IMG/VR virus record: IMGVR_UViG_3300026488_000021
Coordinates: 1-64,000 of that record
Reading direction: 5' to 3' (one strand)
DNA: 64,000 nt
Source: a virus
Shown: positions 2,353 through 63,801 of the stretch, piece after piece
How the letters are laid out: each line of letters starts with the position of its first letter
Numbering within the stretch: the first letter of the stretch is position 1
The notes under the pieces: generated by a model
Told to the model about the DNA's origin: nothing
Seen by the model: only the letters and a program-made list of their open reading frames with translations
The model's database searches: none
Program-made: the position numbers and the translations under genes

Positions 2353-2865
2353 ATGAGAAAAAGAAAACTTTCTAAAAGAACTACAAAGAAAGAAAAAGTT
2401 GTAAGATATGATTGGGGAAGACTTTTTCAGGAATTTTTGTTTTCTGAATTTGTTTCAGTAAAAGATTTTTTGGTTTCTAAATGAATTTTAAAAGAAGATC
2501 AAAGACTTTCAGGAAATATGCAAACAAAAACAAAATGATGGGCTGAAGAAAAAAAGAAATTTTGGCAAGAAAAACTGGAAAATTTCGAACTAGATGAAAA
2601 ACAAAAACAAAAGTTTGGAATGGCTATTTATCAAGGTGTAGATGTTTTTGCAGAAATGCTAATTTATTATGCAAAAAAGCAAAGAGAAAAAATCAAAAAG
2701 TGAGATAAAGGAATTTATGTTAAGGAATTGGTGCAGTTTGGTAAATTATTAGAACATTTCCATAAAATCCCTTTGTGAACAGAAAACGATAATCAACAAG
2801 AAATTAAAGTAGAAAATCAAATATCTCTTAAAGACTTTTTACAAGAAATGAAGAAAAATGACTAA
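2353..2865 (+). CDS. Putative terminase small subunit (module 1)
   Basis: 170 aa, first gene of the packaging operon; basic N-terminus, YDW..LF.EF...GN..TKTKGW. Assignment mainly positional. Confidence 0.45.
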
Positions 2866-3289
2866 ATGAAGAAAAACTGTTAGAACAGCTTATAATCCTT
2901 ATAGAGAACTTTATAATTTTGTCTTTAAACTTATCTATTGCTTTGATTTAAAAAAATTTTTTAAGCAGTGAAAAATAAATATTCAATTTAAGGATAAGGT
3001 TATAAACCTTATCTATACCAAGCCGTTTGTAGAATTTTCGCAAGAAATCAGGCTAAATGCAAATAACAGAGAAGAAAAAGACAGGATAATTTATGCTATT
3101 CAAGAGTTTATTTTAAATGCCTATTACCTTTATGAACGAGATTGAAAACCTATGAAGTATAAGGATTTAGCTTGATTATTATTAGTTTCTCCACAAGCAG
3201 TAGATAACGAAATAAGACAAGAGATGCAAAAAGTAGCACAAAGAGCAAAAGAGCAATGAATTATAGTTGATTGAGTTAACACAGATTAA
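2858..3289 (+). CDS. Hypothetical protein with C-terminal HTH-like segment
   Basis: 143-aa open frame with TGA=Gly; MKYKDLAGLLLVSPQAVDNEIR resembles a sigma-region-4 type HTH. Confidence 0.5.
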
Positions 3290-3349
3290 AGAAAAGTTTA
3301 GAAAAATGAAGGTTTATCTAAAGAAAGTATTTAACTTTTTGAAAAAGAT

Positions 3350-4795
3350 ATGTATGAAAAAATAACAAAAGAGGATTTAGAATTTCTTATCCAAAACGAA
3401 GATAAAATTCCAGAAAGTTTACTACCACAGTATTTATACCGAAGGTGATTTTATGATTTTCAATTTTTCCAAGATTTTTTCTTTTCTCACTTACAAACCA
3501 TTAACTGAAAAAAAGTAAAACCTGCAAAATTTCATAAACAAATGGATAATGACTTAATGAGTGATAAAAACCTATTATGGATTATGTTTAGAATGTCTGG
3601 TAAAACAACAAAAGCCTTAATTTATATTATTTGGACTATTGTTTACAAACAAAGGTATTTTATTACTTTCTATGCTTTTGATAAGCAAAAAGCTACTGCT
3701 AAGATTTTCTGACTTGTAAGGGAGTTAGTAGAAAACCTAAAACTAAGAGCAGTCTATTGAGATATTTTCCCACAAAAGAAACTAACAAAAGACCAACTAC
3801 AAAAAAAGTCTATTGCAGAATTTATTACAACTAATTGAATTAAAGTAAAAGCACTTTGAATGTGAGAAAGCCCAAGATGAGAACTTCATATAACCGAAGA
3901 AGGTGCTTTTAGACCAGATTTGCTTTTGCTTGATGATATTGATGTTGAAAAATCTGTAAGTAATCCAAAGATTATTGACAAAAACTACCATTTTCTTAAA
4001 TCAGAAGTTTTTGGTTGATTAGGTTTTCAATCAAGAATTATTTTCTTAGGAAATATTATTAAACAAGATTGACTTGTCCCAAGATTTGAAAAAGAGTTTA
4101 AAAATAATCCTAACCGGATTGTAAGAAGACAACCTTTGATTGAAGATTGAAAAATAGTTTGGGAAGCTTTTACTTGGGAGAAAATAGAAGAACTTAGAAA
4201 AGAACAATGAGAAATAGCTTTTAATCAGAACTATTTACTTATTCCTTATGTAGACTGACAAATAATAATATGAAGAGAATATATCCAATACTATGATGTC
4301 CTACCTCCAAAACTTGAATACTATATTGGTATTGACCCTGCTATTTCCGAAAAAGAAACTTCTGATGATTTTGCTATTGTTATTTCTTGATATGATAGAA
4401 AAAGTAAAAACTACTATGTGGTGGAGGCAATAGCATTAAGATGAAAACAAAAAGAACCTTTCAAAGCAACCCAAACTATCAAGAACCTTTATCAGAAATA
4501 TAAGCCAAGATATGTGATAGTTGAAAGTGTAGCTTTCCAAAGAGTAATGGGGAAATTACTAAAAAATGAAGGTATAGCTGTAAAAGATATAAAAGCGACA
4601 AAAGATAAAATAACAAGGCTTAAAGAGAAACAATACTTGTTTGAACAACAAAGAGTTTTTTTCTCAAAAAATACGGAAGAGCTTGTAAACCAGCTAGTTA
4701 ACTTTCCAAATGTTCCACACGATGACCTTGTAGATGCTATGGTATATAGTCTAGAAGACCAAAGAAGAAGCTATGACGTGCTTTTAAGTTGATAA
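3350..4795 (+). CDS. terL: Terminase large subunit (module 1)
   Basis: Walker A FRMSGKTT, Walker B RPDLLLLDDID, IIFLGN coupling motif, nuclease IGIDPA and HDDLVDA; 481 aa. Confidence 0.92.
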
Positions 4796-4845
4796 AAACT
4801 AATAAAAAGTAAATTTATTTAGATTTATTTTACTAAAAATATTAA

Positions 4846-6228
4846 ATGCAAATCCAAATAGACCCAGCAATCCAAAAGGAAATAGAAAAAAGAAAACTTT
4901 TTGATAAGCTTTATAAAAATGATTTATCACATTTTTTAGAAGGGACTTTTAGAGAACAAATCTTTAATATTAAAAGTTTCCTTACGAAAGACCAAAGAAA
5001 AGATGAATTACTTTACATATCAGTTAACTTATCAAGCCTTATAGTTAAGAGTTTTGCTGATTTTTGTTTTTGAGACGGTCTAAAAATAGAATTATCGAAC
5101 TATCAAGAAGAATGGAAGGAAATAGAAGAAAACAACTATCTTGATAATGTATTTTATGGTGCTTTTATTAACCAGAGTAAAACTGGTTATTCTATTTTAA
5201 GAACAAGAAAAGAAAATGATGAGGTTATAATTGAAGAAATACCTTTTGACTATTATTATCCTACAATCTCTAATCTAGCACTTTGACAAGAACCAACAGA
5301 ACATACAATAGCAAGTTTTTATGTAGATGAAGATGGAAACCAAAAAGCAAATATCCAAAACTATAAACTACAAGAGAATTGAAAACGGCTTTTTACAGCT
5401 TGAACCTGAACCTTTGATTGACAGACAATAAATTTCGAAGAAATAACCTTACAAGAAGAACTAGATTTCTTACCAATTATAAGAATTGACAACCAAAAAA
5501 TAGCAGGGGAACTTTTTGGTAGAAGTGATTTAGAGGAAGTGCTAGACTTACTAGAAGAAATAAATGATAGAATAACCCAAATTTCTGTACAATTCATTAA
5601 ACACCTAAATGTAAAGATAGCTTTACCAGAAAGTATGTTAGAATGGATAGAAAGAGCAAAAGAGGAAGGAAAGATAAACTCCATTCAAGAACTTGATGTT
5701 ATTTGATTTAGTCAATGAGAACAAAAACCAGAGTTTATTGAAAATAAAAATATGCTTATAACTGATGCCTTAGATTATTTAGACAAACTTATAAAACTTA
5801 CAGCTAGTATAGTGCAAGTGCCTACAAGTTTCTTTGGTATAGAAGAGAAAGGTTGAGCTGAAAAAGTAGAAGCTTTAAGAATTAGAATGATGAGATTTCT
5901 AAAAAAAGTGGCAAGGAAACAAAGAATGTTTGAAAAAGGTTTAAAGGATTTAATAAAAAAGTCTTTAATGCTACAAGGTTATAATGTGGATAACTTAGAA
6001 ATTGATGTTAAATTCTCTGATTGAATACCTCAAACACTAGAACAGAAAGCAGAAATTTATCAAAACTTATATTTAAATTGATTAGTTTCAAAAGAAACAG
6101 CAATTAAAAAGATATTTGACCGGGATGATTTGTTTGTAAAAGAAGAATTAGCAAAGATAGAACAAGAAGACTTAGTAAATAAAGTAGTGCAATGACAAAG
6201 TATTTTACCAACTCTAAATAAACAATAA
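4846..6228 (+). CDS. Portal protein, SPP1 gp6-like (module 1)
   Basis: 460 aa directly after TerL; FGRSDLEEVLDLLEEIND and GLVSKETAIK motifs typical of this portal class. Confidence 0.8.
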
Positions 6229-6401
6229 TGGCTATTTATCAAAAAGTGAATTACAGACAAAAAATTATTGATAAGCTACCAGATACCATAGATAAGAAGA
6301 AATTTGCAAGATTGTATTTTTTAGGTTTATTCTACCTAGCTTTTGCAGTTATTATTTTACTATTTTCAATTTTATTGCCTTTTAAAATCTTATTTTTTTA
6401 G
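6228..6401 (+). CDS. Small membrane protein
   Basis: 57 aa with a hydrophobic C-terminal half; coupled to the portal stop. Confidence 0.55.
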   Translation: MAIYQKVNYRQKIIDKLPDTIDKKKFARLYFLGLFYLAFAVIILLFSILLPFKILFF

Positions 6402-7190
6402 ATGAAAGAATTAGATAAAAAGCTTTTACAATTATTTTTAGAAGCAGAAAAAGATATTTTACTTAAAGTAGAAACAGCTTTAAAGCAATGAAAGCAAATA
6501 ACAAGCTATAAAGCAGTTTTAGCTGATATACAAAATATTTTACAAAACCTTTGAGTAAATATTACAACCTGGGCTAATATAAGATTGCCTGAAAGTTATT
6601 TAGAAGGTGTAAACCTAGTAGATAAAAGTAGTGAAATCACAGATTTTCTAAAAGAAGAACATACAAAAGATGAATATGTAAATTTTATCTGAAACTATTT
6701 AGGGCAAATACATCTTGAAGCAGTAGAGAACTTAATTTCTGAAGGTATTGCTTATGCTAGCAATATTGTAGATTGAGTTTATAGAGGAGCTAGATGGAGC
6801 CTAGCAAAATGAAATGAAGTAGCAATCTTAGAAAAACTTGCAAAGTGAGAAATTGAAGGTGAAAGTTTACAAGAACTAAAACAAGAAGTGATAAAAACAC
6901 TAAAAGAAAAAGGATTGACTATAATGAAAGATAGAGGTTGAAAATCTTGGAGTTTATCTAGATATTGAGAAGTGGTAGTAAGAAGTGAGACAGCAAAAGC
7001 CTCTAATGCAGGAACTATAAATAGAGGAGTAGAAGTATGAATAACAAAATTTAAAAGAGTAGAAAAATTTGATTGCTGTGAAATATGTGCTCTACATAAT
7101 GGAGAGATTTGGGACGTAGCAAAACAAGGGCAACCACCTCTTATATATCATTCTAATTGTCGTTGATATTGGATACCTGTATTTGATTAA
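6402..7190 (+). CDS. Minor head protein, MuF/SPP1 gp7-like
   Basis: DRGGKSWSLSRYGEVVVRSETAKA...CCEIC..HNG...HSNCRG. Confidence 0.82.
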
Positions 7191-7255
7191 ACTTTTAGAT
7201 TGAAAAAAAATAAAAGTATTTAAAGTATTTTTGTTTTAAATCTTAAAATAATTAA

Positions 7256-7906
7256 ATGGAACAAAACAATTCAGTGCAAGCTGGTAGCACTGCTCAAAAC
7301 CAACCAGCAGTAGAAAACTCTGAACCAGTTAACTCTGGGACTGGGGAAGAGCAAGTAAAACAACCAGAGCAAACACAAGAACCACAAGAAGAGAAAAAAT
7401 ATAAAAACTGGATACCGCCAGAAAGATTTCAAGAGGTGATAGAACAAAAAAAGAAGTTGGAAGAAATGCTTAAACAAAAAGAAGAAATGGAACTAGCAGA
7501 GAAAGAAGAATTTAAGACTTTGTATGAAAAAGCAAAAGAGGAGTTAGAACAATATAAACCTTTAAGTGAAAAATTACAAAAATATGAAGAAGTTGTTAAA
7601 AATCTAGCAAATCAAGAGATAGAACAAGTAAAACAAGCAGTAGGTGAAGATAAATTTAATGAGCTTGTAGAATTGCTTGAACTAGATAAGTTAGAACCTT
7701 TACAATTAGTAGAGAAATTACCAAAAATTAAGAAACTTGCAGGTTTGACTAGTAAACCACAAGTAAGTTGAGGGCAACCAGTTCAAACAAATCAAACAGA
7801 TGAAAAAGCAGAATTTGAAATTTTAAAAAAGAAAGTAGCAAATCATACTGCTACTGGTGAGGAGTTGTTAAGGTATAAACAACTTATGGCAAAAATGTTT
7901 AACTAA
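7256..7906 (+). CDS. Capsid scaffolding protein (module 1)
   Basis: Acidic/Q-rich N-terminus, IPPERFQEV then coiled coil; immediately precedes the capsid gene. Confidence 0.75.
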
Positions 7907-7929
7907 ATTTAAATCTTAATTAAAAAGAA

Positions 7930-9072
7930 ATGTTTAAAATCAATGATTATCCATACTTAGCAGATAAAACAGGTGCAATTTTGCCTTTGACAGGAGGCGA
8001 TAAAACTATTTTAAATCTGTTTAGGATAGAAAAACCTATTCAATATGTATCAACCTATGAATGGTATACAACTAAGGCAAGAAGGTTAGAAGGGACAATT
8101 ACAGCAGATTGGGATGCTACAACAACAACAGGTTTAGCAATTAGTGCAGAATTAGCACAAACATTGTTTGCAAATACAATTTTAATGGTAGAAGATGAAT
8201 ATGTTAAAGTAAAAGCAGTTGATAAAACAGCAAATACTATTGATGTTTATAGAAGATGAGATTTAGGTTCAACAGCAGCAACACATTCCAATTGAACTAA
8301 AATATTTGTTATCTCAAATGCAGAAGTTGAAGGAGGAATTACAGCAGAAAATGTAATGTCAGAAAAAGTAAGATATGAAAACTTTATCCAAGAAATCACA
8401 GATAGATTGACTTTGTCTAAAAGAGCAGTTAATTCATCTTTGAAAGACTATGAAGATTTAGTTTTGGAAGAAAGGCAAGAAAAACTAGAAACTCAATTAA
8501 AGAAATTACAATTAAACTTGATTTATGGTAAACCATATAAACCAGCAGTAGGTGAAGCAGACCAATCAGCTTGGACAGCAGGTGGTGTAAAACACTATAT
8601 CACAACAGGTGGTGGTGTTATCTCAACAGGTGCACTTACACAAGACAACTTTGATGCTTTCTTAACAGAATTAGCAAATAGAGAAAGTGAAGTTGATGTT
8701 TTAATTGTAAATCCATTTGTAAAAACAAAGTTAGCAAAATTGGCTAACTATACAGAATACGTAGATGCACAACAACAAAATAAAGATGTTTATGCTGGTT
8801 ATAACTTATTAGGTTTTGTTTCAAATACTTTCAATGGTAGAATTTTGCAAGTTGTAAGCTCACCATTAGTAAAGACTAATGAAATCTTTGCAGTAAAAGC
8901 TGATTATTTGAGAGTATATCCAGTAAAAGATAGATTGACAGGAAATACTCAATTGTTCGACTTTGTAAAAGAAACAAATACATCATCAGCAGTATTGGAC
9001 GAAACTTTGAGAACTGTTTATACAACAGAAATCCAAAAACCAGATACAATGGGTATCTTTATTGTAAGCTAG
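7930..9072 (+). CDS. Major capsid protein (module 1), DUF5309/SU10-like with inserted beta domain
   Basis: The two track ORFs join through TGA into 380 aa; YEW, ENFIQEITD, AGGVKHYI motifs; follows the scaffold gene. Confidence 0.8.
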
Positions 9073-9094
9073 TTTTAAATCTTAATTTAATAAA

Positions 9095-9271
9095 ATGCTT
9101 GTAAGAATAACAAGAGAATGCCTTATTGAAGGTAAGACTTATAGAAAAGGACAGGTTGTAGAAGTAGAAAAATTTGTAGGAGTTTGTATGGAAAAAGTAG
9201 AAGACAAGAAGAAAGAAAAGGAAGAGGAAAAAAGGGAAGAAAAGAAAACAAAGAAAGGAGGTAAAAAATAA
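9095..9271 (+). CDS. Small K/E-rich head-associated protein
   Basis: 58 aa MLVRITRECLIEGKTYRKGQVVEV..., a typical post-capsid gene. Confidence 0.55.
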   Translation: MLVRITRECLIEGKTYRKGQVVEVEKFVGVCMEKVEDKKKEKEEEKREEKKTKKGGKK

Positions 9272-9286
9272 AAGCCTCCTTTTTTT
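9254..9286 (+). terminator. Intrinsic terminator closing head module 1
   Basis: AAAGGAGG...CCTCCTTT followed by a T run. Confidence 0.65.
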
Positions 9287-9345
9287 AAATTGAGAAAATG
9301 AAACTAAAATTATTATACAAGTGATTTAATTTTAAAATAAAAGCT

Positions 9346-10914
9346 ATGGCAAAAAGAAAACAACAAAATCAAAAATGAGGTGTTTTAATTCCAGTAATTA
9401 AATGAGGTTGAAACTGATGAGCTTCTTCTTTTATAGAATTAAATGATACACCTGGTTCTTTTTCTTGACAGGCAGGGAAAACGTTAAAAGTAAATGCATC
9501 AGAAGATTGATTAGAGTTTACACCTAATACAGGAACAGATGAAAAAGTATGACTTAATGCATTAGATGTACCTGGTTATTTGGAAGATAAAATAGATTGA
9601 AATACTATTAAATCAGATTGAACAAAAATATTAGTTGATTGAAGTGTATTAGATGTAAATAAAGTTGATGGCAAAGACGTTAATGACAATAAAATAGATA
9701 ATACTGCACTATGGACAGCTAAAAAGATTTGAGATGAACTTAATAAAAAAGTAGATAAAGTAGTATGAAAATGATTGTCTACAAATGATTTTACTGATGC
9801 TTATAAGAATAAATTAGACTGAATTGAAGATTGAGCTGAAAAAAATGTACAATCTGATTGGAACCAAATAGACAATACAAAAGATGATTATATAAAAAAC
9901 AAACCAGATTTATCTATTTATGAAGAAAAAGCAAACAAAGTATCATCTTGGCAAACTACACCAGACAATATTCATTATCCATCAGAAAAACTAGTTAAGG
10001 ATAATATAGACGATTTACAAAATAATAAAGCTGATAAAATCACTTCGTGAGTAGAAAATAATTTTGTTTCAATAGATAACACGTGAAACATAAAAGACAG
10101 TTGAAAGAAAGCAGATGATTTTGCAAATGCAACACATACACACAATTGGACTGATGTAAATAAAACTTGAAGTAAATTATCTGATATAGAAGATGTACCA
10201 GCTTATACAGGGAATGCAGGTAAGCTATTAGCTGTTAATAATACAGAAGACTGATTAGAATGGGTTGAGTGATGAGGTTGATGAGGTGGTTGATGATGAG
10301 GTTGATGAGGTGGTTGATGAACTATACCTAATAATCCATATGCAATATATAAACTTAATTGAGATTTAACAGACAGTAGTTGAAATTGAAGAGATTTAAC
10401 ATTGTATATTTGAACTCCAACTTATAAGACAGAGTGAGATATTACATATGTTGACACAAGAAGTAATAAAATTGCTACAAGAATGGATGGTGGTACCTTA
10501 CTAAACCAATGGACCTTTTATGTTAAATTAAGAGATGTTGGAACAAGTACTCGGCAAACCATCTTTGGTTGAGAGACTAATGATAATATTGCAGTTTCAA
10601 TATATAAAAGTAGTAATAAATATGTTATTAACTGATATAAATCTGGACACTGAACTCAATATTCCTATGCAAGTGATGTTAATGTAGATTGAAATTGGCA
10701 CAAATTAGCAATTAGTTATAACAATTGAACTATCAAAATATATATGGATTGACAATTTAAAGTCTCTAAGAGTTGAACTTTGGACTTTAATTGTAATACA
10801 TTCTTTTCTGATGAATATAATAGTGCGAATGAGCCTGCATCTTGAGAGTTTGATGATATAATTGTATACGATAGAGTATTAACAGATAGTGAAGCAAAAA
10901 GTTTAACAAGTTAA
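9346..10914 (+). CDS. Fibre/receptor-binding protein with C-terminal LamG/ConA-like domain
   Basis: 522 aa; fibre repeat modules (LNDTPGSFSGQAGK; GKGLSTNDFT..YKNKLDGIE; NVQSDWNQ), 17-Gly linker, LamG motifs DGNWHKLAISY...IYMDG...FDDIIVYDRVLT. Confidence 0.8.
10270..10320 (+). repeat. TGA/GGT codon run encoding Gly17 (24-nt unit duplicated)
   Basis: 11 TGA and 6 GGT codons in frame; unit TGATGAGGTTGATGAGGTGGTTGA at 10270 and 10294. Confidence 0.9.
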
Positions 10915-10940
10915 AATTTTATATTTTAAAAAAAATAATT

Positions 10941-11267
10941 ATGCCTAAAATTGAAGAAAATAAAGAATTGAAATATTTAATTCAAGCAGGAAATGATTTA
11001 TATCCTTGAAGATTTTTATGAGTTTTAGATTGAAAAATAATCTTGAAATGATGAGATAAAGTTGATGAAAATAAAGTAAATGAATATATAAAAAAAATTA
11101 AGAAAAAGGAAAATATTCTCTCAGTAGCAACACTAACAGACCAACTTAATTTAATTGCCTGAGTATTAGCAGAACAAATAGAGGCAAAACCAGTCAATGA
11201 AAGAACAGAGTTAGAAAAAAAATGATTAAAGATTTATAAGTCTATAATGAGGATTTTAAACCAATAA
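10941..11267 (+). CDS. Hypothetical protein (possible fibre chaperone)
   Basis: 108-aa open frame after the fibre gene. Confidence 0.55.
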
Positions 11268-11276
11268 ATTAATATT

Positions 11277-11645
11277 ATGAGGACTATAGAACAAATAGTA
11301 ACTGAAAATTGATATACAATAGAAGAATTAAAAGAATGTAAATATTGTAATTGATGTTGATGAAAGGGAGGGATTAATTTTGAATTACTTATAAAATCTC
11401 TCCCTTATTTTAAAAAAGATAAAGGTAAACAGTTATTAGAAGATTTACACTTGCTATGTAATATGCACGATATATGGTTTTATAAATGATGAAATCTTAT
11501 TGATTTTTTTGTTGTGAATCTTATATTTAGTGTATGAGTCTATAGATTGTTACATTGGACATTATTTATTGTTAGATTATTTCTCTTTGTAATATTATAT
11601 TTATTGTTAAATTTATTTGGAATAAGATATTTTAATAGGTGATAA
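11277..11645 (+). CDS. Phospholipase A2-like / DUF1353-like protein with hydrophobic C-terminus
   Basis: CNGCGG...LCNMHDIWFYKGG..D...N..F pattern (C-x-x-H-D). Confidence 0.65.
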
Positions 11646-11653
11646 GGTTAATT

Positions 11654-12259
11654 ATGGATGCGATTACAGCGTTACTTAATACAACACTATTGTATATTAA
11701 ACAAGCATTAAGTATGTTCCGGTTTAAAGTTATATTATCATTACTTGTAATTATTGCTTGATATATTCTAAACATGTATTACTCGCAACAAGTAGCAATA
11801 GATATGTTATTTATGTTTATGGTTATAGATTTTTTGTTATGATTTTGATTATCAATATATAATAAAACTACATCTAGTTTTAGGATGTGGATATGATTAG
11901 GGAAATTTATTGCATACTTTGTGGTCATATTCGTTTGATACGCCTTTGATATGATGATGTTTTGAGAACCAGTTCAATACTGAATGCACTACTTCTTTAT
12001 TGTATATCTCTGAATAACGGAATTAATTAGTATATGAGAACACTTACATACAATAGGTATTGACCTTCCGCTTATAAGAGATTTAAAGAAGATTCGTAAG
12101 GAAATGCAACACAAATCTGTTAGCGAGATTATATGAGATAAATTAGATTTTGTTTTACATCATAATTATAATAATAATGGCATTCAAAAAGGAGACTACG
12201 AGAAAAAGGGCTTCAAGGAAGACGCCAAAGAAAACATCAACAAAGACATCAAAAAATAA
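11654..12259 (+). CDS. Holin (phage holin family 4-like)
   Basis: Several TM segments; IDFLLG...SSFRM..GLGKFIAY...TELISIGEHL..IGIDLP. Confidence 0.8.
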
Positions 12260-12452
12260 AGTAGTTAAACTATGAAAGAAGACTATTAAAATTAAACACC
12301 CTTGAGCTACAGGTAATGCTTGTAGAAAAATGTGATATTCATCTTGATGTGACCCAAGATGTTTAAGTAAACTAAAAAAAAGGTGAGGTGTGTGGACCAA
12401 AAGAGCTGCACTGGCTAAATGATTATGTAAAATGAAGAAGAAAAGAAAATAA
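12177..12452 (+). CDS. Small very basic protein
   Basis: 91 aa, K/R-rich, IKHPGA...KRAALAKGL; overlaps the holin 3' end. Confidence 0.55.
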
Positions 12453-12473
12453 TTTATATTTTAACTATCTTTT

Positions 12474-53185: not shown

Positions 53186-53213
53186 TTGAAACTAAACTGA
53201 ATATAATTATAAT
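53186..53213 (+). promoter_or_regulatory. sigma70-like promoter TTGAAA-16-TATAAT for module 2
   Basis: Near-consensus hexamers upstream of ATG 53248. Confidence 0.6.
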
Positions 53214-53247
53214 GTTAGTATATTTATAATTTAAGTAAATTACTAAA

Positions 53248-53796
53248 ATGAGAATTCAAGCAAAGACAACAGATAATATTTTGATTGAATTGAGTAAAGC
53301 ATTTGGTTGAACAAAATGATTAGAATACTATATTGAGTATTTAAAGAAATGAACAACAGGGAGTGAGGTAGCTGATATGTACTTGGAGAGCAAATGATTA
53401 ACAAAAGGGAACACTAGTGTTTTATCAGAAGAAAAGTTAAAAGAACAAATAAAGAAGGAATACGAAGAGAAAATGAGGAAACTTGAAGAGCAAGATGAGG
53501 AGATTATAGAGAGGTTGGAGTGAGAGATTAGTAGATTACAAGAGAAGATTGAGTATTTAGAAAAAGCTGAACCTGCTTATGATTGTGATAAAGTTATAAT
53601 ATCATTAGCTAATAAATTAAGACAAGCTTATAATTATGCTGTTAGGTTATCAGATAATAAAGAGGATTGAAGTAGATATGAAAGAGATGCTAGGCTGTTG
53701 AAGAAGGAATTTGAGAAGAAATTTTGAGTGGATATAGAGAATTATGACGAACCGATCGAGGAATTAGTAAAAAATTTTAAAGAGTTAAATAAGTAA
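53248..53796 (+). CDS. Coiled-coil protein upstream of TerL (possible TerS)
   Basis: 182-aa open frame; function inferred from position only. Confidence 0.5.
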
Positions 53797-53797
53797 T

Positions 53798-56700
53798 ATG
53801 TTAGCATTAAAACTACACGATTTAAAAAACTGAGTAATTTACCATCCACATCCTTTAAAGAACCCGTTAGCTTGGGACAAGGAGGATTTTGTATTTTATG
53901 ATAAGAGAGTTGATAAATTACTAAAATGGAAGTTAAGATATCTTTATAATAATTGAAATCCTAAGATTGTAAAGAAAGAAATAGAAATATTAAATACTAC
54001 GTATACATTGGAAGAGTTAGAAGTTCCTAAAAACATTCCTGAAGATATAAAAGTTATTTTACAAGAGTTTGAAGACACAAAAAAAGAGTATATAGCAGAT
54101 GCTGTTAAAAAAAAACTATATGGAGATTTAGAATATACAATAGCGGTTGAACTTCTTATTAGTGAGAAAAAATGAATTAAATTAGAAAATGTTGATAAAA
54201 ATAATTTGGAATATTTGTTTTCGCTACCGTTTAAAACTTTTTATAAGCAAGCTAAAAGATTGATTGATAGATGAGAAATTACTAATACAGATTTAGATAA
54301 TATTGTTATTAAAAAAACATCTAAATATTATTATAATCCTAAACTACCAGTCCCTTATATACCACTATTAGCAAGAGAACATGTTTACACACCAGATTGA
54401 AATCCTTGGAATCCGAAACTTGGTCAGATATATTATTTGTATCATGAAGTTGAAAATACGGTTAACTTATTATTATCAAAAAGACAATATGGTAAAGGAG
54501 GGTATGTATCATTAAAATGATTTCAATATAGAATGGCTGATTGAACATTTAAAAAGGCTAAGGATATAAAAGTCTGAGATAAGTTATTAGCTTCTGATAA
54601 AAGGTGATATACTAACGTAGTTGGCATATCTCTCACAAAAGAACCTGTTTATAAAATTACTCTTTCTAACTGAGCTTATTATTATGCTACTACAGAACAT
54701 CAACATGTAACTGCTGAGAATTATAAAAATTGAAAGTTTGTTTGACCTTATAAAAATACAGTTGAACTTCAAAAATGAGACTTTATACCTTATATGCATA
54801 ATATAGAGATTAAGTGAAAACATGAGAATATTTATAAAATGAAATTATTGTGATATTGGTTGTGAGATTGAACAGTTGCTAGTGATAGTTATGTAAACAC
54901 AATGTCTTTAGAAATTAGTTGCTGAACTAATCAAGCTTATATAGATAAGCTTATTCAATATGCTAAATATTTGTGATTAAAAGCAAGAGTGGAGTTAGAT
55001 ACTAGAAAACAAAATCATTGTGTACATATATACTGATTTGATAATATGAAAGATATTTATAAAAATAAAAGTTGAACTAAATATATTCCTAATTTTGTGT
55101 TTGGATTAGATAAAGAATGAAAGCGAGCTGTGATAGAATGATTATTATGAAGTGATTGATATATACAGATAAAACACAACTGAGTTGTTACAATAGAGTA
55201 CTGTAGTAAATCTGAAGAACTTATTAGAGGATTGCAAATATTGTTAGCAGATGTTTGAGTGTTGTCAAATATTAAAAGCAGATTTATGAAAACGAATTTT
55301 AATAAACATAAATGATGAGATACCTATTGGTATTTGTATATTACAGATAGACAAAGTGTTTTAGATATATTTGAACACACAAATCTTGATCACAAGCTTA
55401 ATTATGAAGATGCTTATAATATTATTACAACAAACACTAAATTATCCAATTCTAAACATTCTATAATTCCTATGATTGCAAAAGAAGAACAGAAACAAGT
55501 AATATCGTGGGAAGAAAAAGTTAGATTAGGAATTAGAAATATTCAGTATAATTTCCAAAGACGGAAAGCTCCTTACTACTGATTAGAACACTGGTTAAAA
55601 TATCATTGGGTTAGAGTAGAAAGTATTGAAAAGATAGGAGAGGAAGAAGTTATACATATACAAGTGGATTGAGATAATTTGTTATGGACAGGATGAGTTT
55701 TAACACATAATTCACTTCTTACTACCTTAATTGCATTTCAGCATTTAATGATGGATTGAGAGAATTCTATACTATATTTGGTTGAGGCTGAAAATAAAAT
55801 ACTTCCAATCATGCAATATTTTGAAAGAGGTTTAAAGAAATATAAGCAGGCTTGAATTTTTTCTATGTCAAAAAATGATTATACTATAACTTGTAAAATA
55901 ACTGGTAATGTATTAAAGTTTATGTCAGCATGAAGTAGGACTGGTGTTAAAGGATATTCTTTTAAAAAGGTAATAATTGATGAAGCTGATTACATAAGTG
56001 ACGATGTATTCTTTTCTTTAATTCCAATATTTAATAAACCTGGTGGTAAATTTTATGCGGTATCAACAGTAGCGTTTGATGTTAAATGAGGTTCAACTTG
56101 GTTTTATGATTTGGCTAAAGATATAGAACTAGGATTAAATAAAATGATTTGAGACATTCCATCACAAGCACTAACAATCACTCTGTATGAAGATGAGTGA
56201 GTTACAAAGCAACAATTACAGATGTTTGAGATAATCCGTAAAAGAGATCCAGATCGTTTTTTGTGAGATTACATGTGTATTAGGTGAGATCAAGATACAT
56301 TGTGGGATAAAAATAAATTGATTAGCCCTATTAGTTCAGATGAATATAAAAAGAAGAATGTAATAAATGTCTTAATTTCTCTGGATCCAGCTAAAAAATA
56401 TGACTATGGTGGATTGGTTGTTAGTTATATTATTGAAGAAGACTGAAAAAATTATATAGTTCCAGTAGTAGCTGATGAGTTAGAAAAGATGGAATATTAT
56501 CAACAAATAGAGATTGTTAAAAAATATGTAGATTTGGCTTTAATAAATCAATTCCCAGTTAATGTTATTATAGACGAAACTGGTGTTTGAGCTGCTGTAT
56601 CAGAAATGTTAAAGCAACAAATACCAAATGCACACTTAATTAAATTGATGTATACCGCAGGGAATAATATTACAGAAAAAAATGGAGCTATTTATGTTCC

Positions 56701-57004
56701 TAAGAAAGAATTAGTTGATACATTATCAACACTTGCATCAGAATGAGAGGTTAAAATTCCGTATGATTTAAAGAATTTGATAGAACAGCTTGATACTTAT
56801 AGGTATGTAAATGGGAAATACGAAGCTATTACTTGACATGATGATGTGATAGAAAGTTTTTTGAATACAACATTTATTTATAATTATAAACTAAAAAAAC
56901 ACTTGAAATTATTTTGAACATCTGTAAACTGACAAACAGATGATATCATAACAATACCTCCGCCTAGTCAAACTAGACAAAGATTAAGAAAGTTTCTTTA
57001 TTAA
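53798..57004 (+). CDS. terL: Terminase large subunit (module 2), intein-containing, long N-terminal extension
   Basis: Walker A KRQYGK|...|S split by the intein, Walker B VIIDEA, AVST motif, nuclease SLDPAKKYD, IDETGVG, GHDD; 1068 aa precursor. Confidence 0.88.
54497..55711 (+). mobile_element. Intein with LAGLIDADG homing endonuclease (~405 aa) in the TerL Walker A motif
   Basis: MADG.FKKAKDIKVGDKL (block A), ATTEH (block B), LLGYWLGDG and IEGLLGSDG (LAGLIDADG), VLTHN|S C-terminal junction. Confidence 0.88.
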
Positions 57005-57017
57005 ATAAACCATCGCG

Positions 57018-58868
57018 ATGGAATTTAAAGATTTACAAAATGTAGTTAGTTATTACGAAGAAAGTATATTCCCGGCTTTCTTGGATTATTATAAAAAATA
57101 CTATTGAGACTTATCAGAAAGAAAACAATATATAAAAGACTGGCAAGCTAATGAGCCGGCTAAAATTCTGGCTAGAATAGTTGATACTTTTTGGTCGAGA
57201 ATATACGATAATCAATTTAGATTTTATGTTTCGCCTAATAGACAAAAAGATGTTCAAACAGCGAAAGCAGTACAGAATCTGTTAGTTTGGGCTATACAAG
57301 TTTCAAATTTGAAACGTAAATTTTTTAATTCTGCTAAGGATGCTTTAATTACTTGAGAAGGATACGGTAGGGTTAAATATACAATTAAAAAAGATAAGGT
57401 TTCATATTTTAATCCTAAATCTGGTAAGAAAGAATTTTATATTAAGAATGTAGAATACCCTGATTACGTGTATATTTCACCATTTAACATTATGGTGGAT
57501 CCAACAGCACAAGGATTCGAAAGCGCTAGATATGTAGTTGCTAGAAGACTGATGACTGAGGATCAAATTAAAAAAGAATATTCTGTTCTTACTGGTGAGA
57601 TTAAATGATTAGAAAAACTGAAAGACGAGGAGGTTGCTCAATATTTGTATACAACAGATTGGTTAGCTTTAAAAAACCAAGCTTTATATAATTCGTCTGT
57701 ATCTGATCCTGTAACTGACGACACAGTGCAATTTGATCCAAATAAATATTTTGAAGTTATAGAATATTGGGAGGCAGATAGGCTTATAATTTGGGTAAAT
57801 TGATATAAAATTTATGATTGAGAAAATCCATTACCAATTAAGACATTACCATTTATTCAAATAACTTATAATCAAGAACCTTGAACTCCTAGGTGAATTG
57901 GGTTATGATTTCAATTAAAACATATAGAGGAAGTTTGAACTGCTGTAATAAATGCATTTCTAGATGATATGAAATTAAAAACTACACCAGTCTATAAGAA
58001 AAGAATTTGATTAAATACAATTAAGTGATTAAATACTGAGCTAGATATTGAACCAGGTATGACAATTCCAGTAGAAGATCCAAATGATTTGTTAGTTATG
58101 GAACTTGGTAGACTTAATTATGATTTACAAAATATGTACCAGTTCTTATTAAATGAAGCTATGATGATAGCTGGTGTGAATGATATTGTAATGTGATGAC
58201 CTTTAATGAAAGTTGATAGAAGTGCTACAAGTTCAGCGGGTAGAATAGAAAGTTTTAAAGCTAGAACTTTAAACTTTTTTGATAGTATAAACCAATCTTT
58301 ATGAAAGATTGCTGAACTATGGCTAGGTATGATTATAGCTTATAATCAAGGTAAGAAATTTGAATATAAAATATTTGATGAACAACAAAAGAAAACTATT
58401 TTTCAGAATATAAAACTTGAAGATATAGAATGACAATTTGATGTTATATTTGATACACAGCAATTAAAATCAGCGATGAGAGATGTAGCTTTACAAAAGA
58501 AACTAAACTTCTTGCAAGTTGCTGCTCAGTTAGCAGTTGATCCAGTTACACAACAACCAATTGTTAACTTAAAGAAATTGGTTGAGAAAATTTGATACGA
58601 TTTGGACCTACCTGATGTATTGTATGAAAATAAAGAAGAACCTAAAAGAAAAACTAAGTTACAACAACCTATACAAAATCAAGAAAAACCACAGGTACAG
58701 GAACAACCACAGTCACAACCACAACAAGAAAATACAGAACAGTTAGTTAATCAACTTATAAATGCTGTTAATGAATGAGTAGAAGAACCAGTTGAGAATC
58801 CAAATCCAGAGGATGCTCAGATACAACAACAATTGTTAGCTACTGCTTTAAATGCTAATGCTTGATAA
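57018..58868 (+). CDS. Portal protein, podovirus (P22/SU10-like) type (module 2)
   Basis: 616 aa after TerL; DALITGEGYG, ISPFNIMVDP, EVIEYW, LPFI...PRGIG, SAT; Q/E-rich tail. Confidence 0.82.
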
Positions 58869-59083
58869 TGTTATTTAAAGATATACAAATTAAATTTGAG
58901 ATTGAACCTACGAATCTAGAACAATATGTAAATCAAGAATGTTTTGATGAATTTGTAAAGTTTGTAAGGAATTATATGATAGATAAAATTAATAAATCTG
59001 AATATGAAAAAGCGGATGTCGCAAAAGAAATTCTATCTACACTTTATTATTTAAAGTGAAAAAAGTCTTGACTTTCTATTTAG
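58868..59083 (+). CDS. Small hypothetical protein
   Basis: Coupled to the portal stop; extended through TGA. Confidence 0.5.
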
Positions 59084-59137
59084 TTTTTTTATAACCCTTA
59101 ATGATAAGGGCTTTTTATTATATTAGGGATATTACAA

Positions 59138-60007
59138 ATGGTTAAAATTAAAGATATGGAACAAATGTTTGATATTGAAAACGAACAAACTAAGGAACCA
59201 ACAATTGAACCTGAAACAGTAGAAGAAGCAGAAGATATGGAAGATGAGAAATTAATAAATGCAATGTTTGGTTTAGAAGAAGAACCTGAGGTAGAAGAAG
59301 ATAATAATGTAGAAGAAGAGAATAATAATGTAGAAGAAAAAAATAACAATATAGAAGAGGAACCTACTGTGGAGAATGTTCAAAAAGAAGATAATGAAGA
59401 ATCAGAATTAAATACTAACGAAGGGCAAGAGCAAGGGGGAACAGAAGAAGAAAAACCAGTTGAGAATTTGATTGAAGATTTACTTTCTGACGCAGAGAAA
59501 ATTGGTGGTGAAGAAGTAGATGCAGCTGCACAAGAAGTTCAAGATGCGATTGATGAGGGCGCGCCACAAGACGAAATCTTACAGAAGTTAGCTGAGCTTG
59601 AAGAAGCTTTGGCTAACGAGACTTTAACAAATGAAACTTTATCTAAGGAAAAAGAACAACTTATTCAGAGAATATCTGAATTGCAAGACAAACTTGCAGA
59701 ATACGAAATGAAAAGCTATGAGTATGGAACAATTGAAAAAGCTTTGGAGGAAGATCCAAGTTTAAAATGATTTGTAAAGATTTTAGCTTATTATAAGCTA
59801 GATCCAAATAAAGTTGGGAAGGAGAGATTAATTTCAGCTCTTGATAATCTAACTCAATCTGAGTTCGGAGTTTCTATTAAATCTCTTCTTGACCAAAAAG
59901 CGAAAGAAGAAAATAAGAAAATGACTATGGGAGAAGAAAAAACTCCTATTGAAATAAATGTGTCAACTGACACAGAAAATCCTATTGAGGATATGTTTGA
60001 TATTTAA
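59138..60007 (+). CDS. Capsid scaffolding protein (module 2)
   Basis: Very acidic, coiled coil, precedes the capsid gene; internal VEE(E)NNN repeats at ~59290-59360. Confidence 0.72.
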
Positions 60008-60029
60008 TTTATTTGGTAAATAATTAAAA

Positions 60030-61358
60030 ATGGCTAACTTATTGACAAAACTACAAGATAAACAAGGTATTGGTTTGTATTCACAATTGATTGCAAAACA
60101 AAGAAGTCCGTTTATGTCTGATATACTATTTGGACAAGATATTAACGATCCGTCTTCTACATTGTCTTTTAAAGGGATTTTATTACAAAAGACAACAACA
60201 AAAGACGGTAAATCAGTAGAATGGAGATTGATTTCAGCTAATGAGGATTATTCTACTCTTGCTGCAAATGCTGCTGCTGGTGCTACATCTATTGATGTAG
60301 TTGATGCTACTCCATTCTCAATTGGTGATGATATTGAAGTTGGAACAGGTACTGCAAATGCAGAAAGAAAATATGTTACTGCTATTACTGGTAATACATT
60401 AACATTGGATTCTGCATTAGCTAATGATCATTCTGCTGGTGATCAAGTATTGTCTATAACACACGCAAAAGGTGTTGGTGAAGTAGCAGATAAAGGACAA
60501 GGTGTATGGACAGATGATACAGAATCAAACTTCTTCCAAACATTTGATGCTGTACTGGAAGTAACAAAGGATGAATTAAATGCTCATATTATGGCTGGTT
60601 CTGGTGCTTTTAATATTTCTATGAAACAAGCACTAAGTCAAAAACAAATTGATGCTGGTATTGATAATTATTTAAAATTGGAATTTATTAGAGTATTTGG
60701 TTATGATATTCTTAGAAGTGTAGAAAATGCATTCTGGAGTGGTAGAAAAGCTGAAATAAATGTTGGTGGTAAATTAAGAAGATTTACTGGTGGTTTTGAA
60801 GAATATAAAACAACTGATGAAACAATTGATGCTTCTACTTTGACAGATAAGGAATTGTTTGATAAAATTGTTTCTCACATTTATGATGTAGAAAACTTAG
60901 CATCATCAATTAATGCTAACGAAGTTGTAGTTGTATGCAATAATGCGTTCTTCAAAAAATTCTTGACATTACAACCATCTGGTATTGCATTACCTGAAAA
61001 ACCAACAAAAGATGGTTATAGATTAACAGAAATTATGTTAGGAAACAAAACATATCAAGTATATTACTCTCCTGCTTTGGATAAATTAACAGCTAATAAT
61101 CCAACAGTTGGTAGATTGTATGTATTCCCAAAAGATACAATTGCTGCTAAAACAAGAGAATATACAGATGTAGATGCTAAACAATTGAAGGCTGTTAAGG
61201 GTGGTCCAGATATTAAAGTTACATATGATCCAACTGCTCAAGCTGCTGGTGATGTATGGAGATTCTACTTTATGTATGAAGTTGCATTCATCTTTGGTGC
61301 ATATACACCAAATAAGGCATTGGATGTTTATAGAAAAATTACAGTTACAAATATCTAA
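60030..61358 (+). CDS. Major capsid protein (module 2), DUF5309/SU10-like with inserted beta domain
   Basis: 442 aa; VEW, SNFFQTF, VENAFWSG, RFTGG; follows the scaffold gene and has its own terminator. Confidence 0.85.
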   Translation: MANLLTKLQDKQGIGLYSQLIAKQRSPFMSDILFGQDINDPSSTLSFKGILLQKTTTKDGKSVEWRLISANEDYSTLAANAAAGATSIDVVDATPFSIGDDIEVGTGTANAERKYVTAITGNTLTLDSALANDHSAGDQVLSITHAKGVGEVADKGQGVWTDDTESNFFQTFDAVLEVTKDELNAHIMAGSGAFNISMKQALSQKQIDAGIDNYLKLEFIRVFGYDILRSVENAFWSGRKAEINVGGKLRRFTGGFEEYKTTDETIDASTLTDKELFDKIVSHIYDVENLASSINANEVVVVCNNAFFKKFLTLQPSGIALPEKPTKDGYRLTEIMLGNKTYQVYYSPALDKLTANNPTVGRLYVFPKDTIAAKTREYTDVDAKQLKAVKGGPDIKVTYDPTAQAAGDVWRFYFMYEVAFIFGAYTPNKALDVYRKITVTNI

Positions 61359-61364
61359 TTATAG

Positions 61365-61391
61365 AATACAGCCTAACCGGCTGTATTTTTT
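61365..61391 (+). terminator. Intrinsic terminator after capsid 2
   Basis: AATACAGCC-TAACC-GGCTGTATT followed by a T run. Confidence 0.8.
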
Positions 61392-61453
61392 CTATTGAAA
61401 AAAATATTTATTTCTTTACTGTAATAGGTAGGTTTATAATTTATTAACAAATT

Positions 61454-62053
61454 ATGATAAAAAGTAATCAAACTGTTTGAAGTTTTATTCAACAGGTAGC
61501 TATGATGGTTAATGAAATAGTATCATCAAATATGTTTAATGATAATTTTTGGATTTCGATTTTGAATTGGAGTATGAACTATATTTATTGATATCATAAA
61601 TGGAGTTGGAATATTTATTATGAAGAGGTAGATGTAATAAATTATGAAGCAGAAGTTACTTATCCTATTCAGGAAATTATTGAAGTTATTGACGATTTAT
61701 GAAATTTATATATTCAATGAGAGTATAAGCCAGACACTGGTGTATTTGTTAAAAAATGAAATAAATTGTATTTTAATAATGACTTTGTAGGAAATAAAAT
61801 TACAGTGGCATATAGAAGATGGTTTATTCCGTATACTGTAAATGATATGTCATCTACATTAGATATTCCAGCACAGTTAGAATGACCATTAGCTAGTTTA
61901 ATGCAGTTTAGAATTACACCGATTTGGTTGTGAGAGTGAAGTTGAGGTATGATGAATAATTACTTACAGATTGCAATAAATGAGTTAAATCAATTTAGAC
62001 AAATTGATACATATGAAGAAGCTCAAAGACCTTTAAACCCTAAGAGGAGATAA
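61454..62053 (+). CDS. Putative head-tail adaptor (tail tubular A-like)
   Basis: 199 aa after the capsid gene; ILN....I...HKWSW...LDIP pattern; position. Confidence 0.55.
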
Positions 62054-63801
62054 TGGCTATACAACAATTGGATATAAGACCACAAGAATGATTTAATCAG
62101 ATTTATAGTGAATTAGTGAATAATGAAATTGTAAATACTCCTTACAATAAAGATTATTCATCTAAATTTTTCTTTTTTAAAAAGAGAAAGTGAATAAAAG
62201 AGTATAAGAGAAAAGATGGTTATGGTTTTTTAGATTATGCTGTGTACACTGATAATAATTGAAATAAAGAGTTCTTCCTGACTAGAAGACAATCAGACAA
62301 TGCTTATGTAATATTTGATTGAGATTTGAATCAAGTTCTAGAAATTTCTGAGTGATGAATTTGTGATAGATTTTATTCGGTATTATGATGAGGAGAGAGT
62401 AGATATGACAATTGAACTGTGTCTAGTTCAGATGCAACTCATATTACTGATAATTCTAAAAATTGGAGTAATAATGAATTAGCTGGTTATTATGTTTATA
62501 TAGATGATTGAACTGGTGCTTGACAACTTAGACAAATATTGTCTAATACTTCTGATACCATCGAGGTAAGTTGATGGAGTGCTAATCCTTGAAGTTGAGC
62601 TAGTTATGTGATATATACTAGTTTAGTAGACAATATAGTTGTTCCATATAATAATTGAGCCTATATATTTGATTGAGAACAATGGTATGACTCTGCTGTG
62701 TTTTCTTGATATAAAATAAAATGAATGGAGGTTTGGAATAGTAGGTTATGGTATGCTACTGGGAATCAAATAATATATTCTGATGAATGAGATTATTATT
62801 TTTCTCCTGCTGGGAATGAGCTATTTATTTCAAATCTTGATATAAATAATTTATATTGATTTTGAAATTATTTATTTGTTACTACACCTAAAAGTATTTG
62901 AGTTGTGTATAAGGGATTCTCTACAACAGATTGAACTCCGTTTTTCATAATTAAAGAAGGGGTGTCACAAGTATGAGTTAAAAATAGGTTTGGGATTTGA
63001 AGATATAGGGATGTACTTTACTTTGTATCGTCGGATCTAAGATTGTATTCACTAGGAGTAACCATGCTTGGAGAGGAAACAGTTTTTAAGTTTCAAGATA
63101 ATTGAACATTGCCTTCAAATTTTATTGAAAAATACTATGATAAAGATATAAAACTTTATAGTGATATAAATTATTTGTATTTATTTTGTATAGATGGTGG
63201 TAAGACAAAAGAAATATATTATAATGATTTGTACAAAGGATGGTTGAATAATGAGTATATGGTAAAGATTAATAGTAAAAAATTATTATTATCGCAGGAA
63301 TATGTGCTATGAGATTGATTTGTTTGAACCAGAGAGTGATATAAAGATTTAGACGCTACTTATTGACAAAAGATTAGATGTGTAGTTGGTGAGCCTGATA
63401 TATTTATGTGGAAAGATATTAAATATGTTAATATTTTGTTGTGAAAGAGTGATTATATACAGAACTGAATCTTAACAGTTACATCACATATCTGAAATAA
63501 GAAAGTAGAAAGAAAAATAGATTTAGCGAGAACTTGATATATTTCAGATATGTGAGATATTATAGAGAACACATACTGAAGTACATTAATTTGATATCCA
63601 TTATTTGGTTGAGATTTAGGGTATTTAAGTGAATATATATCTGATATTGATATTATTCAAGTTTGATTAAATATGACTTGACAACTAATTGAATTTACAA
63701 TTGATACAGGTGAATGAGATAATTGAATATTTTATGGTGGTATGATGGTATATTATAATTTGTTAAACCCTAAATTAAAATATTATAGAAACATTATTTA
63801 A
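62053..63801 (+). CDS. Putative tail nozzle/stabilisation protein (P22 gp10/T7 gp12-like)
   Basis: 582 aa, beta-propeller-like composition (WNSRLW, IIYSD, LYFVS); podovirus gene order. Confidence 0.55.

Follow-up and report, generated by a model that had tools for sequence, protein, structure and literature searches.

This locus raises the question of how two unrelated head-packaging modules come to lie on a single viral contig. The stretch analyzed here (the window) comprises 64,000 nucleotides, positions 1 to 64000 of an 82,022-bp viral contig (IMG/VR record IMGVR_UViG_3300026488_000021) from hydrothermal-vent metagenomes. A preliminary description of the window had offered three readings, namely (a) a tail-less, capsid-forming satellite that borrows the tail of a podophage, (b) one phage able to build two particle types, and (c) prophages in tandem or a chimeric assembly with its joint in homologous fibre modules. 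Our analysis of the whole contig and its relatives favors the last of these, and the contig probably represents two separate, ordinary phages of a host using genetic code 25, joined along the path of an assembler and not in a physical molecule.

The genetic code of the contig is code 25 (TGA=Gly). Only 24 ORFs of at least 100 aa were found under table 11 versus 105 with TGA as a sense codon, and a single ORF contains 57 TGA codons in a Gly-rich context. The GC content is 0.26 to 0.29 across the contig and the tetranucleotide correlation between its parts is r = 0.6 to 0.8. The value for A against C1 (0.82) compares with 0.58 to 0.80 against chunks of B, and A and C were not convincingly separable from B by tetranucleotide or Gly-codon usage. 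Circularity beyond the window had also been considered, and we found no terminal repeats at the contig ends. The overall order is A-R1-B-R2-C:

Segment A, 1-9.3 kb: siphovirus integrase, toxin-antitoxin pair and head module
Repeat copy R1, 9298-11645, plus strand: 538-aa lectin-domain fibre-like protein, 108-aa ORF, 122-aa ORF
Segment B, 11.5-66.9 kb: podovirus unit, ca. 57.25 kb with one repeat copy
Repeat copy R2, 66906-68817: second copy of the R1 cassette
Segment C, 68.8-82 kb, past the window end: siphovirus neck, tail tube, tape measure, Dit and fibres

Both head modules proved to be real. The first (module 1), with its left neighbors, has the following features:

1-885, minus strand: N-terminal part of a serine recombinase (integrase; PF00239 Resolvase, 4e-28), the gene extending beyond the contig start
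1266-2236, plus strand: putative toxin-antitoxin pair, a SocA/Panacea antitoxin-domain protein (1266-1790; PF13274, 5e-25) and a 148-aa partner
2858-9271, plus strand: head/packaging module with TerS candidate, TerL, portal, 57-aa ORF, MuF, scaffold candidate, major capsid protein (MCP) and 58-aa ORF
2858-3289, plus strand: TerS candidate, 143 aa, a conserved neighbor of TerL
3350-4795, plus strand: TerL (phrog_38, 7e-72)
4846-6228, plus strand: portal (phrog_533, 2e-30)
6402-7190, plus strand: MuF-type minor head protein (phrog_4611, 2e-23)
Between MuF and MCP, plus strand: scaffold candidate, assigned by position only
7930-9072, plus strand: MCP1 (PF17236, 5e-18)
About 9252-9286, plus strand: terminator-like hairpin behind the capsid operon (in the RNA fold, a GGAGG/CCUCC stem with a U-run after it)

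TerL, portal, MuF/gp7-type protein and MCP thus stand in the SPP1-like morphogenesis order, as the preliminary description had listed them, and the serine integrase to their left and the terminator behind the capsid operon were likewise borne out. Other parts of that list held only in part. The portal is a portal, but its SPP1 type found no backing, the one match in the PDB being weak (9d94, E 0.0012). In the toxin-antitoxin pair the antitoxin-domain protein stood, while the 148-aa partner had no significant match. The ORF first taken for TerS (2353-2865) had no match either. The hairpin had escaped a simple terminator scan because its loop is 11 nt long. In tblastn against GenBank phages, TerL1 gave only matches of ca. 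25% identity.

The statement that module 1 lacks connector, tail tube and tape-measure genes is correct inside the 64-kb window but not for the contig, where genes from connector to tape measure span 70198 to 76651, just beyond the window end, and the neck and tail genes as a whole 70198 to 80407. They encode a head-tail adaptor (SPP1 gp15-like connector; phrog_4931, 9e-12; DUF3199, 8e-9), a Neck1/tail completion protein (phrog_5), a major tail protein (MTP; phrog_807, 9e-13), a 925-aa tape-measure protein (TMP; phrog_12798, 1e-41), Dit (phrog_33, 4e-11; SPP1_Dit) and a fibre with a BppL_N domain; the SPP1-like tail set from connector to Dit is complete. Judged by these genes, A and C appear to form one temperate SPP1-like siphovirus (phage 1). 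Together with one repeat copy they already amount to about 24.8 kb, open at both contig ends, and this siphovirus part of the contig contains no lysis, lysogeny-control or replication module.

A metagenomic relative, a 34,453-bp JGI contig (L002) whose MCP is 78 to 79% identical to MCP1, shows the arrangement of such a phage. Segment A is collinear with it at 50 to 79% protein identity (TerL 73%, portal 72%, MuF 55%, MCP 79%). After the MCP, L002 has a variable cassette of ca. 3 kb followed by homologues of positions 68586 to 76651 of our contig (125-aa protein 49%, 280-aa protein 61%, adaptor 59%, MTP 78%, TMP 53%), podovirus genes being absent between head and tail. Removal of the repeat-bounded unit from our contig restores exactly this gene order, A-(cassette)-C.

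Segment B, in turn, is organized as two arms:

11639-31099, plus strand: continued late arm with holin (PF05105, 5e-18), 361-aa ORF, two giant proteins of 1315 and 1637 aa, fibre cluster (23689-28134, fibre-type PHROG matches) and 488-aa phosphoesterase-like protein
31752-31827, minus strand: tRNA-Asp (GTC; ARAGORN), where the two arms converge
31857-51339, minus strand: early/replication arm with AAA_28, 744-aa protein, SF2 helicase, PD-(D/E)XK nuclease, MT-A70 methylase, dUTPase and YopX (Pfam and PHROG scans)
51340-53247, no strand: divergent control region between the arms, ORF-poor and GC-rich (0.35-0.38, composition profile)
53248-64000, plus strand: podovirus head-neck module (module 2) with 182-aa ORF, TerL with intein, portal, 73-aa ORF, scaffold candidate, MCP, adaptor and 582-aa nozzle candidate, running past the window to 66547 and then into R2
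53798-57004, plus strand: TerL (Terminase_6C plus LAGLIDADG intein)
57018-58868, plus strand: portal (P22_portal PF16510, 1e-16; SU10_portal PF23899, 1e-10)
After the 73-aa ORF, plus strand: scaffold candidate, assigned by position only
61454-62053, plus strand: adaptor, 199-aa ORF, with the predicted fold of podovirus adaptors

The podovirus portal and adaptor announced for this module were both recovered. The adaptor model (pLDDT 82) had podovirus adaptors as its top Foldseek matches (E 7e-8 to 5e-4), with KHP30 7wmp_m, SU10 7z4b, N4 9lc0, crAss001 7qog and T7 gp11 7box at probability 1.00, so that a P22/SU10/T7-type portal and a tail adaptor fold are both present in B. The 442-aa ORF (MCP2) is predicted to be an HK97-type capsid protein, since a homologue carries PF17236; its structure model is poor (pLDDT 46), yet the structural matches were only capsids, which lends weak support. 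The profiles of MCP1 and MCP2 are unrelated (hhalign probability, 2.6%). No family and no PDB sequence match was found for the nozzle candidate, and PDB sequence searches with the adaptor, MCP2 and the portal gave nothing significant either, nor did tblastn of MCP2 against GenBank phages. The 744-aa protein had no family assignment in Pfam or PHROG, and Rfam detected no family at E≤0.1 over 50.8 to 53.3 kb. Neither tail tube nor TMP families were found among the scanned ORFs of B, and the giant proteins are putative ejection/internal proteins. Scans of ca. 75 ORFs (Pfam/PHROG, many of them without assignment) detected no integrase, recombinase, HTH repressor or partition genes. From its gene content, B with one repeat copy would be a podovirus of about 57.25 kb without a detectable integrase (phage 2), with one late arm (TerL-portal-MCP-adaptor, followed by fibre cassette-holin-giant proteins-fibres) and one divergent early/replication arm.

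Relatives were found for both phages. Those of MCP1 are on contigs of 34,453, 14,512, and 1,684 bp, and those of MCP2 and the second portal on one 54,253-bp contig carrying both, a length close to the 57.25-kb repeat period, as well as on shorter ones. Among the relatives found, each holds one head module and never both. Viral contigs gave nothing in single-protein scans with MCP1 and portal 2 or in alignment scans with MCP2 or the adaptor, and genome contigs gave nothing in alignment scans with MCP1 and MCP2.

The joints between the two phages are the direct repeats at 9659-11508 (R1) and 66906-68817 (R2), 86.8% identical over 1.9 kb, in agreement with the homologous fibre modules named in reading (c). 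The 538-aa protein of R1 has a Laminin_G_3 domain (4e-13), both 538-aa ORFs are intact, and the encoded protein pairs are 90.5% (538 aa), 84% (108 aa), and 57% (122/125 aa) identical. Within the repeats lies an identical core:

10288-10790, plus strand: 503 bp, 100% identical in R1 and R2 by alignment, candidate crossover or mis-join node

The near-exact stretch around this core measures 703 bp (10288-10990), whereas the flanks of the core are 77 to 94% identical between the copies. An exact 34-mer of the core had no match in viral contigs. Since the core is identical in both copies, part of the lectin-domain fibre cassette appears to have been exchanged very recently between two morphologically different phages, which would imply co-infection of the same host.

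Depth was taken from the Logan contigs of four runs (X1 to X4), X1 being the probable source run, in which one contig reaches 879 bp to the left of our contig start. There, 10288-10990 forms a 703-bp contig of its own with a depth of 30.9, compared with 16 to 19 in its flanks; the assembly breaks on both sides and no contig of the run bridges the core. A coverage step between A and B, proposed as a diagnostic in the preliminary description, was not seen, the two being equal within noise (16.1 to 19 versus 18.6). In runs X2 and X4, A and B are both represented by pieces whose depth is similarly low, while the eight longest pieces listed for X3 all fall within A or R1 and were not counted as evidence on B. 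Joints with sides of 20 to 25 nt among the Logan contigs were low-complexity noise. Equal depth of A and B is what a single molecule would give, a point weakened by the fact that coverage-guided assemblers mis-traverse only at similar depths.

The assembly reading accounts for this pattern as follows. The path would enter the shared core from the siphovirus, circle the podovirus loop of the graph once, re-enter the core and leave into the siphovirus tail, giving A-R1-B-R2-C; phage 2 would then be circular. As in other loop chimeras, the exact shared node exceeds the usual k-mer size and insert, has summed depth and is unbridged, but the depth difference between the joined genomes is absent. 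In favor of an artefactual join, no repressor or integrase was found in B, which makes it hard to explain how B could be carried stably as a passenger prophage. Before any use in taxonomy, genome-size statistics or host prediction, the 82-kb record should probably be divided into a podovirus of ca. 57 kb and an incomplete siphovirus.

The second explanation, which we consider the less probable, is a real cointegrate of Campbell type, in which a circular podovirus recombined at the identical core into a resident siphovirus prophage, leaving a 57-kb passenger between hybrid repeat copies. A single crossover, whether between two circles or between a circle and a prophage, would produce exactly this topology. 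Direct homologous repeats flank the insert, both 538-aa ORFs have survived, and both contig ends lie in the siphovirus, with the integrase at the left end. The equal depth in X1 and the joint occurrence of A- and B-like pieces in X2 and X4 also fit. However, equal depth is a precondition of a coverage-guided mis-join as well, and outside the original assembly no contig reaches across the core. A molecule of more than 82 kb matches neither parental size (relatives of 34 and 54 kb), and since neither integrase nor repressor nor partition genes were detected in B, an integrated copy would be expected to be unstable or lethal. It is only tentatively that we consider an apparently virulent, integrase-less podophage of a code-25 (Gracilibacteria/Absconditabacteria-type) host lodged in a temperate siphophage prophage, one copy per prophage ("piggy-back lysogeny"). 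A physical join would make the contig a natural example of passenger lysogeny mediated by recombination. Classical lambda genetics knows Campbell-type integration, through general recombination, into a resident prophage, and the likeness lies in a circular genome held between two direct homologous copies inside another prophage. The classical partners, however, are closely related temperate phages, whereas here a siphovirus is paired with a podovirus that has no detectable integrase, with one cassette in common and a putative linkage.

The remaining two readings are effectively refuted. The tail-less satellite, similar to a cf-PICI, making capsids from module 1 and borrowing the podophage tail, suited the window, where the module lies beside an integrase and a toxin-antitoxin pair, ends in a terminator-like hairpin and has no tail genes. 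It is now very improbable, given the full siphovirus neck and tail at 70.2 to 80.4 kb of the same contig, matching L002, in which the module carries its own tail genes directly after the head genes; the refuting condition on such tail genes in the preliminary description thus turned out against this reading. Moreover, known neck architectures suggest that a podovirus adaptor and nozzle would not dock to a head of SPP1 type once gp15-like and Neck1 connectors have completed it, and the satellite size of about 10 to 20 kb is exceeded by A, C and one repeat (about 24.8 kb) and by the 34,453-bp relative. Equally hard to credit is one large phage (>82 kb) with two head and two tail systems and two particle types, for which the single contig, orientation scheme and genetic code and the similar composition could be cited, but similar composition is expected of phages of one host, relatives have one system each, excision of the repeat-bounded unit gives back the gene order of the relative exactly, and the core is unbridged at double depth. 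A false lead is thereby removed, the contig offering neither a first CPR-phage satellite nor a dual-capsid phage.

Set against known systems, the contig resembles the code-25 phages and prophages of Gracilibacteria and Absconditabacteria (Liu et al. 2023, PMC10746230) in its dense in-frame TGA codons read as Gly and in the temperate equipment of integrase, portal and terminase; it differs in coming from hydrothermal-vent samples. The gene order and families of A and C are those of SPP1-like siphoviruses (MuF, DUF3199 gp15-like protein, Neck1, MTP, TMP and SPP1_Dit), without implying a portal specifically of gp6 type. They differ in very low protein identities (TerL ca. 25% to cultured phages), an MCP belonging to Pfam SU10_MCP, a variable fibre-like cassette between MCP and connectors, and genetic code 25. 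Segment B is similar to podoviruses with SU10/N4/KHP30/T7-type adaptors and P22/SU10-type portals in its portal Pfam families, its adaptor fold and the giant proteins downstream, with no tube or TMP family detected in the ORFs scanned, and differs in having no sequence-level relative among GenBank phages, a LAGLIDADG intein in TerL, code 25 and a nozzle that is only a candidate. Finally, chimeric contigs between coexisting viruses with shared regions have been documented (Roux et al. 2017, PMC5610896). Our contig has in common with them two coexisting viruses sharing a highly similar region longer than the k-mer size, a crossing at that region, the summed depth of the shared node and a known gene order once the loop is removed. 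Here, however, the genomes are equal in depth, so the coverage-step diagnostic fails, and the copies are only 87% identical outside the 503-bp core, so they are real and distinct.

The two head modules noticed on this contig both exist, with a terminase large subunit (TerL), a portal, and a major capsid protein (MCP) found in each, and they probably belong to two phage genomes, a siphovirus (segments A, 1-9.3 kb, and C, 68.8-82 kb) and a podovirus (segment B, 11.5-66.9 kb). The window is positions 1-64,000 of one virus record 82,022 bp long, in which no terminal repeats were found.

Head, neck, and tail genes of the contig, in contig coordinates
3350-4795, TerL, module 1
4846-6228, portal, module 1
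6402-7190, MuF-type minor head protein, module 1
7930-9072, MCP (MCP1; PF17236), module 1
53798-57004, TerL, 1,068 aa, split by a Hint/LAGLIDADG intein, module 2
module 2, portal, P22/SU10-type
60030-61358, MCP, 442 aa, HK97-type, module 2
70198-70620, head-tail adaptor (phrog_4931, DUF3199), segment C
segment C, Neck1/tail completion protein
72184-72948, major tail protein, segment C
between major tail protein and tape measure, two chaperone-sized ORFs
73874-76651, tape measure, 925 aa (phrog_12798, 1e-41), segment C
segment C, Dit (phrog_33/SPP1_Dit)
after Dit, Tal-sized ORF
segment C, 573-aa fibre (BppL_N)
after the 573-aa fibre, Kelch-repeat protein

Profile matches bear out the TerL, portal, MuF, and (for module 1) capsid labels of the preliminary description, while its TerS, scaffold, and nozzle are candidates by position only. 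Comparison of the two MCP profiles gave no detectable relationship. A 52%-identical homologue of the 442-aa capsid protein carries PF17236; the protein itself gave a poor structure model, whose structural matches were all capsids or encapsulins.

Next to module 1 are a serine recombinase gene, cut off by the left end of the contig, and a gene for a SocA/Panacea antitoxin-domain protein, and a terminator-like hairpin (ca. 9252-9286) is found 3' of the capsid operon. The module had been described as lacking connector, tail tube, and tape measure, but a classic siphovirus neck and tail is present on the same contig past the window end, after 458-, 99-, and 289-aa ORFs and a second pair of 538- and 108-aa ORFs. 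The sole close MCP1 relative with gene context, a 34,453-bp JGI metagenome contig (L002; GC content of 24%), has, in this order, TerS-like (54% protein identity), TerL (73%), portal (72%), MuF (55%), scaffold (52%), and MCP (79%) genes, a variable cassette of ca. 3 kb including a fibre-like 330-aa ORF, and homologues of our 125-aa (49%), 280-aa (61%), adaptor (59%), 110-aa (63%), and 132-aa (60%) proteins, major tail protein (78%), and tape measure (53%). The natural order of the siphovirus lineage is therefore A-cassette-C; relative to L002, our contig has 57 kb of other DNA inside the cassette.

This DNA is segment B; its period, one copy of the repeat included, is ca. 57.25 kb. Its plus-strand late operon would be continuous if the segment closed on itself, beginning with TerL, portal, MCP, adaptor, a 582-aa ORF, and three ORFs, followed by a fibre cassette, holin, a 361-aa ORF, giant proteins of 1315 and 1637 aa, and a fibre cluster that has fibre-domain pieces in common with the distal siphovirus tail proteins. 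The predicted fold of the 199-aa adaptor ORF (model pLDDT 82) matches podovirus tail adaptors (KHP30, SU10, N4, crAss001, and T7 gp11). TerL reaches 1,068 aa because of the inserted Hint and LAGLIDADG homing-endonuclease intein, and its TerL homology is limited to residues ca. 690 to 1020. The intein (ca. 54.5-55.7 kb; LAGLIDADG_3, 2e-16; Intein_splicing; Hom_end_hint) interrupts the ATPase domain.

The single minus-strand early arm encodes helicase, PD-(D/E)XK nuclease, MT-A70, AAA ATPase, dUTPase, and YopX. The arms converge at a tRNA-Asp and diverge from a GC-rich control region (51.3-53.2 kb); positions 51340-53247 have few ORFs and a GC of 0.35-0.38 (background, 0.27), and an Rfam scan there returned no family at E ≤ 0.1. 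A 744-aa ORF (37348-39582, minus strand) in the middle of the replication arm has no Pfam or PHROG match and, from its position, may be a divergent polymerase or primase. One small ORF within 31857-51339 weakly matched RNA_pol_Rpb1_3 (6e-5, batch Pfam scan). A 207-aa early protein (46504-47127, minus strand; weak DUF7399 match) is 43% identical to one from the L002 early region (3-566), and is another module common to both phage lineages.

The joints of segment B are direct repeats (9659-11508 and 66906-68817; 86.8% identity over 1.9 kb). They span a gene for a 538-aa protein that ends in a concanavalin-A-like lectin domain (90.5% identity, the first ca. 95 residues excepted), together with a 108-aa ORF and the larger part of a 122/125-aa ORF; a holin-type gene lies 3' of each copy. 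Identity is 77-94% in the left part, 100% in a 503-bp core (10288-10790 and 67547-68049), and to its right 98% to ca. 10950, then 85-88%, dropping to 66-71%. Run X1, a hydrothermal-vent metagenome and the probable source (99% of sampled words present), has Logan contigs tiling the first 20 kb of the window.

Depth of Logan contigs in run X1
1-2684, depth 19
2695-7151, depth 16.1
7229-9829, depth 16.8
9834-10317, depth 18.1
10288-10990 (core), depth 30.9
10961 onward, depth 18.6

The core, at 30.9 versus 16.1-19 around it, is therefore a collapsed two-copy node, at summed depth in this independent assembly, and it is bridged by no contig from outside the original assembly. A Logan contig of this run reaches 879 bp past the left end, where the serine integrase gene (1-885) is cut off, so the rest of this gene, and possibly an att site or host junction, is recoverable from the reads.

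The assembly graph, A to core to C with a loop from core through B and back, is the same for one molecule or two. We consider it probable that the join is an assembly artefact, in which a linear A-repeat-C genome and a circular B-repeat genome would have been traversed as one; chimeras of this type have been described (PMC5610896). Each resolved genome agrees with its relatives in order and size. Homologues of the segment B MCP (50%) and portal (58%) occur together on one 54,253-bp contig, the longest of the lineage, and MCP1 relatives are on other contigs. Nor is it apparent how the podovirus could be carried silently: no integrase, recombinase, partition, or HTH-repressor family was found among ca. 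75 of its ORFs. A real recombination cointegrate, a single A-repeat-B-repeat-C molecule, is possible but unlikely. It is favored by the depths of A and B, equal within noise in run X1; however, this is weaker evidence than it seems, because a coverage-following assembler mis-traverses only at matching depths. With the neck and tail in place, the proposed tail-less satellite is very improbable, as is, to the same degree, one phage building two particle types.

Under either one molecule or two genomes, the identical core within diverged flanks is real. It records that two phages, which must share a host, recently exchanged a host-recognition cassette.

Almost no long ORFs exist in the window under table 11, and those of ≥100 aa rise from 24 to 105 once TGA is sense. 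TGA makes up to 16% of codons in some ORFs, within Gly-rich context. The 347-aa protein at 27091-28134 (27% glycine) has 57 TGA codons, all glycine, and its fibre-like N terminus is 44% identical to that of the siphovirus Kelch-repeat protein (81123-81896). TGA is nearly avoided in both capsid genes (two in 7930-9072, none in 60030-61358; elsewhere 46-66% of Gly codons), perhaps as a result of selection on genes with high expression. From the ORF gain and the Gly-rich context we infer that the window uses code 25 (TGA=Gly). L002 is likewise TGA-recoded, and code 25 is used by Gracilibacteria, Absconditabacteria, and the phages and prophages known from them (PMC10746230).
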